In this document: positions 3,001 through 6,000 of the stretch, piece after piece
How positions within the stretch are numbered: the first letter of the stretch is position 1
Layout of the letters: each line of letters starts with the position of its first letter
IMG/VR virus record: IMGVR_UViG_2880406838_000007
Origin: a virus
Lineage: Duplodnaviria > Heunggongvirae > Uroviricota > Caudoviricetes
Reading direction: 5' to 3' (one strand)
Length of the DNA stretch: 24,009 bases
Program-made: the position numbers

Positions 3001-6000
3001 TGTTTGCGCATTGATGCCGAGATACGCTTCCAGTCTTCGCGGTCGTTGTCGATAACTTCATTTTTTGCCCAGCGATGGATGCTGCCGTCAATGTTTCCGG
3101 CATCCACATCACCAGGCCAGAGAGCGTAGGCCAGTTCTTCATCCAGCGTTTTCCATGTCTGCTTGTATTCGCGACAAATGGCGGCAGTGACTGGGTTGAT
3201 TTTTCCTGCTGAGTTTTCAGTGTGCTGTTGATTGACTCTGGCGCTGGCGAGATCAACAACAGACGTGTATTTTCCAGTCTCTTTGCGCTCTGCGTCCTGC
3301 CGTTTTTTCCAGTTACGTAATTCAGCCTGAATTTCGGGCCATTTGGCACCCGGATTACATTTGTGTTTAACCCATCCGATAGCGAACAGTTTGCGTTCCG
3401 GATACATAGCGTTAATTTCAGGCGTTTTCATCAGTGCTTCAACGATATGCCCGTCAAAGGTAGCAACGTCTTCCTGCAGTAATTCCTGCGCGTCAATCGC
3501 CATATCAACGGTGATGTTTTCACATGTACCGAACTTAACCAGGACCGCGTTCTGTACTTCAGGGGACAGCTTGTCAAAATTGACGTTCATCGGATCGGAT
3601 TCTGGTTCGACCGGAATAAAGGAAGCGGATTCCTCATCCCAGCGGTTTTCCTGCATATATTCAGCATCCCAGGAATCGAGGGCAGGGCGGGGTATACCAG
3701 GTTTATCCTCGCAGACAAGAAATTTATAAGCGCAGTCCTGAGCAGCCGGATAATGTTCCAGGAATTGCCAGTGAAATTTTGCGCGGGCGCGACGTTCATC
3801 ACCGGCTTCAATGGCAGTGGCTACAGCGACGGCACCTTCTTCCTTTATTGCCTGTTCGTCCGGAATGGCGGCGCAAATAAAGACTTTACTCATTTTGTTT
3901 TAACCTCATTACAGATTTCAGGGTGAACGAATCCCTGCCATTGCTGGCATTTTTAATCCGTTGGTATGGCGTTAATATGGCTGGCGGGTTATCCAGCCGG
4001 TATTTCGTTATTCAGGTTCAGCGATACTTTTTTTAACGGGAGGCATTCACCGGGGATTTTTTGTTCGTCCCTTACCTGAATGCAGGATGACTTACTGTCA
4101 TAAATTCCGGTAATCACATTTTGTGGCTCACCCGTTATAAGAAAAACGGTCATCACCAGTGCAAATGCTGAAGTCACTGCTGTTCTCCGATAATACCAAG
4201 TTCAAGAAGGGCAATTCTGGAAAGTATGGAATTATCATTGAGAAGATAAGGTTCATATTTTCTCATCTTAATGGCATCTTCCGTAAACTCCCGGTTACTG
4301 AGCAGAACACCAATATCAAAACAACCTTCAGACGTATTAACGTTTGGTAATAACGTTTCCATTATCGCGTCCTCAACAATGAATTTTGTGATGCGGTGCC
4401 TGGTGCCTCCAGGTGACGTTAACTAGTTAACAATTAACGCCGGATACAGAGAATCCACCCATAACACTGTTTTTGGTTTTAACTGTTCCGCGTGCGCTCA
4501 GCCGCATTCACCACATCACAAAATTCACTTTAAAAAGGGCGGCAGAGCAGTCACGGAGTAAAACTGATACCGCCAAACGTCACCAGAAAATTGATAACAG
4601 AGGGCGTTGCAGCGGGGTTGTCACTTAAGCGTATGGTCAACCTGACAACCCGGTGTCCTCAACGGGGAAGGAATAACCCCTCCATACTTACCGACGCGCC
4701 ATTTCGCGGATTGCCACAACCGGAAGCGCACGGTCGACGAAAATTTAACGACAGGCTATCTATGAACCAGCTACCTCGCCGTGCGCTTTCGCGTTATGGT
4801 CTGACTTTTCAGAGAAATATCCTTTCAGTAAACTGTCAGTGCCGGATGTTCACCCGTGTCCGGCGCACGCACTCCACTTCACCCGTGGAGAACTCCTTAA
4901 TTACCAACCCTCAGGAGGGTGAATGTTAAAATCAACTCTTATTGCTAAATGCCTTTATCAAAATCGCATGGTAAGCAGCATTTCAATAGGCGAGTCTGCA
5001 GTTAAAAGTATTTTCGAAGAGTACTTTCCCGGGCATGATTTTAATAAATGGAATACCAAATTACCGCCAGCAGTTTCAACGCGTATTCTGAAAGCAACCG
5101 AAAGAGCAAGTACAATTCGCGTTAACTATTTCATTAAAGATTTGTGGGATCTTTGATATCCACAGAGCCTAAAGTATGTGCATATGGATGTGCTATTATG
5201 CGCCCTCGCAGATTTGCATCATTTTCTAAATTCACTGAACGAAACAGGGCATCAACAAGGCTCTGTACAATGCAAAGGCAATCGAAGACTGTCGCCGTTT
5301 CTGTTTTGATTGATGAAAGAACATGGCCATTCACGCAAACAGAAATTACCCGTTTATTAACATCGCTTTCCTGCTTTTGATTATCAGAACCATATAGCCC
5401 AGAAAAAGCATTGCGCACATTACGAACCATATTATCGATGGTTTCTTTTTCTGCGGTACTAAGGTCAAGAGTAGCCAGTTGTGAGCGAACTATATTCGAT
5501 GCCATTTCCTGTAATGGCGTTGGTAAATCTTTAAATTCCATTATTAGCCTCGTTGGTTAGCTATTAACGTGGGTATGTAATCATTCTGGCAATGCTTAAT
5601 GCCGCTGCTTTTTCCAGATTGGTGATATCCTGCTCCAGAGCGGACAGATTTTCAGCCTGCTTAGCCCTGGCTTCATTGGCCCATTTCAGGTCCTGCACCG
5701 CCTTAATTTTCTGGTGCATCCACTCATAAAGTTCATCATCGGTATAGTCTGGCGCGATGATGACGGGGGCTCGTTTCTGCATGTCGGCTCCTTGTGGTTA
5801 GCGTTGCCTGCTTTTTAACCACGTCAGGCGAGGTGGTATCCTCTGAGGGGTCTGTTACTCGAGAGGAAATTGGTTATGAATACAATCAAGTTTTCTTGCC
5901 CAGAATGTGGTGGCTAAGTCTTTGACACATCCTTTAAGCCGCAGGGCTCTGACAGTTTCGCGGGAGCCATCTGCAAAAATTGTGGTCACCTTGTAACTGA

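Follow-up and report, generated by a model that had tools for sequence, protein, structure and literature searches.

A conserved structured RNA domain in the DicF leader of N-less lambdoid prophages and its possible role upstream of terminators

The window analyzed here is a stretch of 24,009 nucleotides (nt) of Caudoviricetes DNA (IMG/VR record IMGVR_UViG_2880406838_000007) that is 100% identical to the Escherichia coli O111 prophage NC_013364. Its minus strand carries, in order, a cI/DicA-like repressor gene, an open reading frame (ORF) of 118 amino acids (aa; 99 aa in the RefSeq annotation), ydfC, a gene for a 135-aa protein, the region that concerns us and the small RNA (sRNA) DicF, followed by dicB, a DUF1482/ydfD-like gene, an exonuclease gene, xis and int. 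An original prediction made from the sequence had treated the region upstream of DicF as one unexplained GC-rich unit of roughly 540 bp with hairpins and an antisense ORF. The G+C content is indeed 52-56% at 4600-4900 but only 37-39% at 4900-5200, and the composition boundary falls on the junction of an insertion relative to K-12, at ~4911/4912, so that the region is not one unit. It consists, we think with high probability, of a non-coding leader of DicF, a structured RNA domain within that leader (hereafter the module), and a real 77-aa protein gene that belongs to an inserted cassette. The module, a four-way junction with a pseudoknot, recurs in phages without the remainder of the leader and is usually followed by an intrinsic terminator; what it may do there is weighed in the last section.

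The DicF leader and the fold of its module

At positions 4589-4911 lies the leader of DicF, which is non-coding and belongs to the early-left, dicB-type operon of a lambdoid prophage without N. This leader is ~97% identical to the "long untranslated region" between ydfC and dicF of K-12 (96.9% over 4589-4909 against J53/K-12, match H48, flanked by the same genes, and 97-98% in other strains), and in sequence and position relative to DicF and dicB it is the Qin dicBF leader of K-12 (Faubladier et al. 1990; Balasubramanian et al. 2016). The gene order is that of K-12, ydfC ... leader-dicF-dicB-ydfD, except that ydfC adjoins the leader in K-12, whereas here a 632-bp two-gene cassette comes between them, at the 5' end of the leader. 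Comparison with the K-12 spacing, which the original prediction had proposed, partly bears out its suggestion of an extended DicF precursor: it holds for 4589-4911, where such a precursor is known from K-12, and 4912-5543 is a separate insertion. Across complete E. coli genomes the leader is matched in 4116 of 5426, at no more than seven places per genome, and the remainder of the region, in its cassette version, is present in only 648 of the same 5426.

A coding function for the leader was considered and rejected. The leader has 32 distinct full-length versions, of 319, 321 or 322 nt, separated by indels whose lengths are not multiples of three. Across these versions no reading frame of the operon strand stays open beyond 62 codons; in the window itself there is, as had been noted, no operon-strand ORF of 60 aa or more between the 135-aa gene and DicF, the longest being 36 and 33 aa. 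On the opposite strand a 112-codon ORF can be read (4591-4929, plus strand), and the 106-codon antisense frame of the leader is open in just 17 of the 32 versions. Some phage records annotate "hypothetical proteins" over the leader, but these are 29-61 aa long and inconsistent in strand and position, and RefSeq annotates zero genes there. The alternative that the region is a decayed gene, intact in related prophages, was thus not borne out.

DicF lies directly 3' of this region and, in this prophage, is the terminator that is paired with the module. In K-12 its 5' end is reported to be made by RNase E and its 3' end by intrinsic termination or by RNase III (PMC5069750, PMC9438474). The match of the 52-nt RF00039 covariance model lies outside the region, and 4589-5156 is unmatched in Rfam even at E <= 10; the object described here is the DicF leader, not DicF. 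A scan of the whole window at Rfam gathering scores combined with a scan of 4300-5300 at E <= 10 returned at this locus only DicF and a sub-threshold match to STnc100, and no Rfam 15 family, riboswitches, ribozymes, C4, isrK and STnc100 included, matched 4589-4735 at E <= 10. The same held at gathering scores over the module in L289, L291, L305 and L316, four divergent loci.

The module occupies the 3' third of the leader and contains both hairpins that the original prediction had picked out. The inverted repeat GGGTTGTCA (4615-4623)/TGACAACCC (4643-4651) is there and corresponds to helix P3, and the GGGG (4664-4667)/CCCC (4677-4680) hairpin is there and corresponds to P2 (Table 1). That these hairpins go beyond chance is shown by comparison across sequences and not by folding any one of them. 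A distant BLAST search against phage genomes gave the first clue; a fold was then proposed from the alignment, and homologues were gathered by two pattern scans of IMG/VR and then by a covariance model, R1, of 122 positions and 30 pairs. R1 matches the module in the window with 134.7 bits (E 7e-33); this is its sole match, so the window holds one copy. Pair statistics were computed on alignment A9, in which 87 R1 matches, 53 of them distinct, were realigned. All members come from enterobacterial phages, many of them close relatives, so that independent events are fewer than the counts of alignment cells given here.

Within A9 the standard pairing is kept in 94.5% of cells, as against 32-53% when the partners are slid by 1-3 columns. 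Changes on both sides of a pair are seen at 17 of 36 pairs, versus 8.6 +/- 1.6 in shuffled alignments, none of 500 of which reaches 17, and versus 2-8 pairs in the slid-partner controls; the real alignment has 78 cells with such two-sided changes. The covariation score is 0.192 against 0.115, and RNAalifold, run unguided, recovers P0, P1, P2a and P3. Pairs are thus maintained by compensatory substitution beyond the controls, as expected of a structured non-coding RNA (ncRNA). The sense strand pairs in 94.5% of cells and the antisense strand in 91.5%, with 93 G-U against 35 A-C cells; this G-U excess, together with genomic context, places the RNA on the operon strand.

Loop residues that stay unpaired are invariant, and the helices vary through compensatory substitution. 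P2 varies in sequence and length (GGGG/CCCC, CUGGGG/CUCCAG, CAGGGG/CUCCUG, CCAGGUG/CACCUG and UGGUG/CACCA), and P3 changes from UUGU/ACAA to, for example, UAAC/GUUA, CUAC/GUAG or UCAC/GUGA while closing an invariant 19-nt loop, GGUUGACCAUACGCYURAG. Through this loop the pseudoknot connects P3 to the internal loop of the P2a-P2 arm, and its single variable pair reads UA in 46 cases, UG in four and CG in three, phage P1 having GCAUGG/CCAUGC. The loop of the P1 helix and the residues flanking the pseudoknot are near-invariant as well. Taken alone, the module shows no more stable folding than its shuffled controls (z = -0.47), compared with z = -2.2 for the whole leader; folding energy by itself is uninformative for the module, and the evidence for its fold is for this reason comparative. 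When the whole leader is folded for minimum free energy (MFE), the module and the terminator of DicF appear next to each other, with zero nucleotides in common.

Just 5' of P0 lies a short conserved motif, GUGCGCUUC, found as GUGCGCUUCC, GUGCUCUCAG, GUGCUCUCUU and GCGCUCUUUU across most module classes and missing in P1, P7 and pPE4. The motif appears to resemble boxA weakly (lambda, CGCUCUUA; rrn, UGCUCUUUA).

Table 1. Features of the locus and other RNA matches in the window (positions are those of the window; helices are given 5' arm with 3' arm)
Feature	Position	Strand	Remarks
DicF sRNA (seed and Rho-independent terminator)	4537-4588	-	Rfam RF00039, 76.7 bits, E 1.4e-15
RNA module, 119 nt	4604-4722	-	four-way junction (P0, P1, P2a-P2, P3) and pseudoknot; covariance model R1
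P0, closing helix	4720-4713 with 4613-4606	-	5/8 pairs covary
P1 helix	4709-4705 with 4698-4694	-	nearly invariant
P2a	4693-4690 with 4654-4651	-	pair reads UA:48, CG:4
P2 hairpin	4680-4677 with 4667-4664	-	variable in sequence and length; 3/5 pairs covary
P3	4650-4643 with 4623-4616	-	6/8 pairs covary
Pseudoknot, 6 bp	GUAUGG 4687-4682 with CCAUAC 4636-4631	-	99.4% of cells paired
Conserved motif GUGCGCUUC	4723-4731	-	3 nt 5' of P0
Part A of leader, ORF-free	4735-4911	-	~97% identical to K-12
Part A hairpins A1 and A2	4872-4890 and 4842-4863	-	loops both carry CACGGGUGA
Two-gene cassette	4912-5543		insertion relative to K-12 between leader and ydfC; junction alignment A7
77-aa gene, WP_000920491.1	4923-5156	+	phrog_10348; Shine-Dalgarno AGGAGG at 4913-4918, 4 bases before ATG
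135-aa gene, WP_000394552.1	5134-5541	-	phrog_1363/phrog_6937; convergent with 77-aa gene
sok antitoxin RNA	11705-11854	+	side observation
tRNA gene	15138-15210	+	side observation
tRNA gene	15304-15377	+	side observation
ALIL pseudoknot	18574-18690	+	side observation

Distribution of the module and its association with terminators

BLAST searches against phage genomes found the sub-segment 4598-4720 conserved independently, at 75-89% identity, in phages from which the remaining leader is absent: cdtI, 2H10, Ayreon, Stx2c phages, P1, P7 and pPE4 (deposited as an Actinobacillus phage). The suggestion that the region might contain another sRNA therefore holds in part: there is a separately conserved structured RNA domain, present in other phages without DicF, but it is confined to 4604-4722. 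A loose pattern, GCGGNAAGNATGGN{25,55}CAGGTTGA, run on genome contigs found true matches, among 120 loci, only in E. albertii and E. ruysiae.

With or without the remaining leader, the module is always found in a repressor-controlled early operon, on its sense strand. In cdtI (L005) a pL-like promoter with TTGACA at 2184 is followed after ~280 nt by the module (2499-2617), a terminator (2626-2676), a second terminator-like inverted repeat and only then the first gene. In P1 and P7 the module starts ~25 nt past the C1-controlled promoter Pban and is followed by a terminator, tRNA genes, tciABC and ban; the "dicF-like region" of the P1 record NC_005856 (68791-68892) overlaps the module's 3' half together with the terminator that follows, as a similarity note only, with no structure or function. 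In pPE4 the module sits between a dicA-like repressor and kil.

In nearly all cases an intrinsic terminator of variable sequence comes next, 8-31 nt from the closing helix; in the Qin/O111 type it is DicF. A hairpin with a T-run, the latter starting within ~70 nt of a scan point set near the 3' end of the module, is found downstream in 94 of 98 distinct contexts, comprising 44 distinct terminator sequences, and two further contexts have long-loop terminators. In L078 and L289 the terminators, 30-150 nt 3' of the module, have long loops with AGGAGG and a start codon; translation begun in such a loop would proceed into the terminator's 3' arm, and the two processes, translation and termination, might be coupled there.

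In L291 and L316, in contrast, no terminator adjoins the module, which forms part of a conserved stretch of ~1-1.3 kb free of ORFs. These regions (L291, 4541-5546; L316, ~4500-5660) have several blocks in common and are without any Rfam match, and one block, L291 5394-5481, is also present in LIMEstone-like lytic phages of Dickeya. The whole may be a large, multi-domain ncRNA.

The loci that carry the module lack a recognizable N protein. No homologue of lambda N or of Stx-phage N was found at any of 175 module-bearing loci, 124 of which include at least 2.5 kb of upstream sequence. Two N-bearing phages, phiSTEC1589 and POCJ13, have the flanks in common with these loci, and their module is reduced to deleted remnants. 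What is left is, in phiSTEC1589 (L011, 2650-2800), no more than the boxA-like motif with the first part of P0 and, in POCJ13 (L255, 3440-3640), the sequence from the 3' half of the P3 loop onward; a DicF-like terminator follows the remnant in both.

The 5' part of the leader and the inserted cassette

The 5' section of the leader, part A, is free of ORFs and is also conserved in N-bearing phages, phi367 and phiSTEC1589 (alignment A8). Its two hairpins have CACGGGUGA in their loops, and this pair may be a repeated protein-binding site; a comparable pair is found upstream of the 77-aa gene in Serratia and Klebsiella. Part A also contains an SD-like (Shine-Dalgarno-like) UAAGGAG within a self-complementary stretch, GGAGUUCUCC, followed in this window by a 10-codon GTG mini-ORF, which we regard as non-coding because its start codon is lost in phiSTEC1589. 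In a deletion variant, L025 (1635-1753, minus strand), the part A hairpin CGCGAAAGCGC is fused directly to the P1 hairpin of the module, CGCGAAAUGGCGC, and part A may therefore hold a degenerate, partial copy of the 5' half of the module.

The cassette that separates the leader from ydfC contains two convergent genes whose 3' ends overlap by 23 nt (5134-5156). The original prediction had pointed to the 77-aa ORF on the plus strand, with its near-consensus SD sequence, as a possible small antisense-encoded protein. ORF and SD are both present, and the ORF is a real protein gene, conserved across genera at a kept length and with a confident predicted fold; it is not, though, antisense to DicF or to the module, being one half of a co-inherited pair in the inserted cassette. 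Both proteins match PHROG families over their full length (E 1e-47 for the 77-aa protein and phrog_10348; E 5e-47 for the 135-aa protein), families without known function. Homologues of the 77-aa protein form 33 clusters, mostly of exactly 77 aa, with 55-72% identity and 27 invariant columns, and come from Klebsiella, Dickeya, Xenorhabdus, Salmonella, Morganella, Yersinia and Serratia. AlphaFold2 models the protein as five helices (predicted local distance difference test, 96.7; predicted template modeling score, 0.86). We found no structural relatives of either cassette protein, and Pfam, NCBIfam and PADLOC (libraries of 2023-2026) gave no significant match for either, so that neither is assigned to a known defence or toxin-antitoxin system.

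In every context examined, from Dickeya, Serratia and Klebsiella/Raoultella, the 77-aa gene is convergent with a gene of 77-79 aa, again with a 23-nt overlap, and the pair lies where the early-left operon begins, just past a cI-like repressor. Over its C-terminal ~75 aa the 135-aa protein is homologous to these 77-79-aa partners (alignment A5), and it is such a partner fused to an N-terminal part. Its N-terminal ~60 aa (5362-5541, minus strand) are found again, joined to unrelated C-termini, in more than 200 E. coli protein clusters of 77-212 aa and mark a polymorphic, modular protein family. A scan for sigma-70 consensus promoters upstream of the 77-aa gene found none; since only ~11 nt separate the cassette junction from its start, transcription of this gene must begin in the antisense strand of part A or farther away. 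The cassette is most likely an accessory, moron-type protein pair with convergent, overlapping transcripts that are inherited together.

Other cassettes occupy the same site: a 91-aa (plus strand) and 106-aa (minus strand) pair in L003 (2837-3410) and a 151-aa gene (plus strand) in L004 (2796-3251). The L003 pair has the same SD sequence (CTCAGGAGGGTGA) and the same 23-nt convergent overlap as the 77/135-aa pair. A hotspot for cassette exchange lies between ydfC and the DicF leader, and among the cassettes it receives is one with a well-folded 77-aa family found across the Enterobacterales.

A few observations concern the prophage more broadly. The sub-threshold STnc100 match lies in the dicF-dicB intergenic region (4330-4539, minus strand; 38 bits, with a gathering score of 47), and a full match is found elsewhere in the window (16162-16334, plus strand; 100.8 bits); an STnc100-like RNA may be a recurring leader in such prophages. 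Further ncRNA matches are the sok antitoxin RNA of a hok/sok system, two tRNA genes and an ALIL pseudoknot, which is an IS3-family frameshift signal and therefore indicates an insertion sequence element in the window. The cro-like gene divergent from the repressor (~6903-7129, plus strand) carries a frameshift in the annotation of the identical O111 genome (L001, 5864-6090), and the lytic switch of this prophage may be defective.

Possible functions and known systems

We tentatively posit, from the position and company of the module, that it could be a cis antiterminator that controls terminator read-through, put-like in function but unrelated to the put RNAs of phage HK022. The module would act in cis on the elongating RNA polymerase (RNAP), either alone or with Nus factors recruited via the boxA-like motif, so that a fraction of polymerases would read through the DicF-type terminator and later terminators. 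It would substitute for the N/nut system in N-less phages and set the ratio of terminated RNA, DicF, to read-through transcripts that encode dicB/kil, recombination genes, xis and int; RNase E, whose cleavage here is known from K-12, would cut the AU-rich linker just 3' of P0 and release DicF. The larger claim, that the module represents a new class of cis-acting RNA that makes E. coli RNAP resistant to terminators and is unrelated to put, we hold to be doubtful.

Several observations weigh against antitermination. The case for it rests on position, co-occurrence with terminators and absence of N; the test for N covered two N families, and the contrast with N-bearing phages comprises two lineages. 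In the Qin/O111 type the module lies ~1.7 kb from the promoter, past several translated genes, unlike putL, and only one copy was seen in each phage, with no pR-side counterpart of the putR kind. The resemblance to boxA is weak where the motif exists at all, and L291 and L316 carry the module with no terminator beside it. The diversity of the module is limited to enterobacterial phages, and several of the compensatory changes may trace to few events. Finally, the terminators resemble the 3' ends of Hfq-type sRNAs with variable seeds, which fits sRNA biogenesis equally well.

It is indeed a possible, if rather unlikely, alternative that the module is a domain for sRNA biogenesis or stability, forming the structured 5' portion of a precursor from whose 3' portion an Hfq-dependent sRNA such as DicF arises. 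The module could then (i) direct RNase E to its cleavage site in the AU-rich linker, or restrict cutting there, or (ii) shield from decay the 3' end of the upstream mRNA or the 5' end of the precursor. Each class of module is followed by a single-stranded stretch and a terminator hairpin with a U-tail, with seeds that differ between classes, and the RNase E-made 5' end of DicF maps just 3' of P0, as this scenario would have it. However, stems would suffice for a stability or boundary element, which has no need of an invariant 19-nt loop, a conserved pseudoknot or conserved junction residues; according to PMC6582626, citing Balasubramanian 2016, plasmids with only the dicF region yield functional DicF; the 3' part has no known sRNA function in cdtI-type phages and in P1; and in L291 and L316 the module occurs without an sRNA-like 3' unit.

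The same invariant loops and compact, pseudoknotted fold are typical of a specific recognition surface and would also suit a stand-alone ncRNA acting in trans, an improbable option in which a module RNA of ~120-190 nt accumulates after termination and RNase E cleavage and might, soon after prophage induction, sequester or otherwise bind a protein of host or phage. Transcription from Pban in P1 yields the module before any other RNA, and in pL transcripts the module comes early; it is also modular enough to sit inside larger ORF-free regions. Against a role in trans, the literature searched describes no sRNA at the position of the module, and strict sense orientation and coupling to terminators are equally explained by a role in cis.

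Very unlikely, in our estimate, is a ligand-sensing riboswitch or attenuator that toggles the adjacent terminator. A junction and pseudoknot with invariant unpaired residues, 8-31 nt upstream of an intrinsic terminator, would fit this design. Yet no Rfam riboswitch matched at E <= 10, the closing helix and the terminator have no nucleotides in common and both form in the MFE fold, and inspection of the variant sequences revealed neither an antiterminator pairing conserved across terminator classes nor any conserved alternative pairing, on which grounds classical riboswitch logic was rejected. That the leader is a decayed protein gene or a functionless spacer is scarcely credible and largely refuted: the 112-codon antisense ORF and the short hypothetical proteins of some phage records are set against the frame-breaking indels and inconsistent annotation described above, and compensatory pair changes and invariant loops would be unexpected.

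Few bacterial sRNAs have been known for as long as DicF, whose effects extend to cell division, metabolism and the virulence of enterohaemorrhagic E. coli. [quoted passage not shown] Sequence conservation around dicF was thus noted earlier, in 1994 and in the P1 annotation, and a partial anticipation of the fold is possible. The DicF literature searched treats the leader simply as untranslated and describes no conserved fold in it, and we found the fold of the module, its modular spread and its coupling to terminators described neither in Rfam 15, nor in the DicF and put literature searched, nor in a 2025 review of phage sRNAs. A leader with this pseudoknotted domain is matched in about three-quarters of complete E. 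coli genomes, and the domain is also present in the model phages P1 and P7; it offers a concrete, mutable element that could control DicF, DicB/Kil and other early-left products. Were antitermination the right reading, it would explain how early terminators are transited in N-less prophages of the Qin/Rac type and in the ban operon of P1/P7, and what sets the balance between DicF, the terminated product, and dicB/kil, the product of read-through.

Three other known systems bear comparison. The nut site of lambda (boxA and boxB with N) has in common with the module a position in the early-left operon and, in the weak motif 5' of the module, something like boxA. The module is nonetheless no lambda-type nut site: it is a far larger RNA without a 15-nt boxB-type hairpin, and N was absent from the 175 loci searched for the two N families. 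Small RNAs of the SroC/CpxQ type are likewise released from a longer mRNA by termination and RNase E, but their precursors have no known separately conserved, pseudoknotted domain common to unrelated downstream sRNA-like units. The put RNA of HK022, a two-hairpin element of ~70 nt (PMC9378689), is a protein-independent, processive antiterminator that acts in cis via the zinc-binding domain of the RNAP beta' subunit. Homology of the module to put was rejected: with filters off, R1 reached a best E of 8.2 in HK022 22000-34000, which should contain putL and putR, and in place of two stem-loops the module has a 119-nt four-way junction with a pseudoknot, in one copy per phage. If it is an antiterminator, the module would be only the second phage RNA class of its kind after put, with which it has much of its setting in common: both are cis-encoded, structured RNAs that lie in the repressor-controlled early operon of an N-less temperate phage, upstream of intrinsic terminators.

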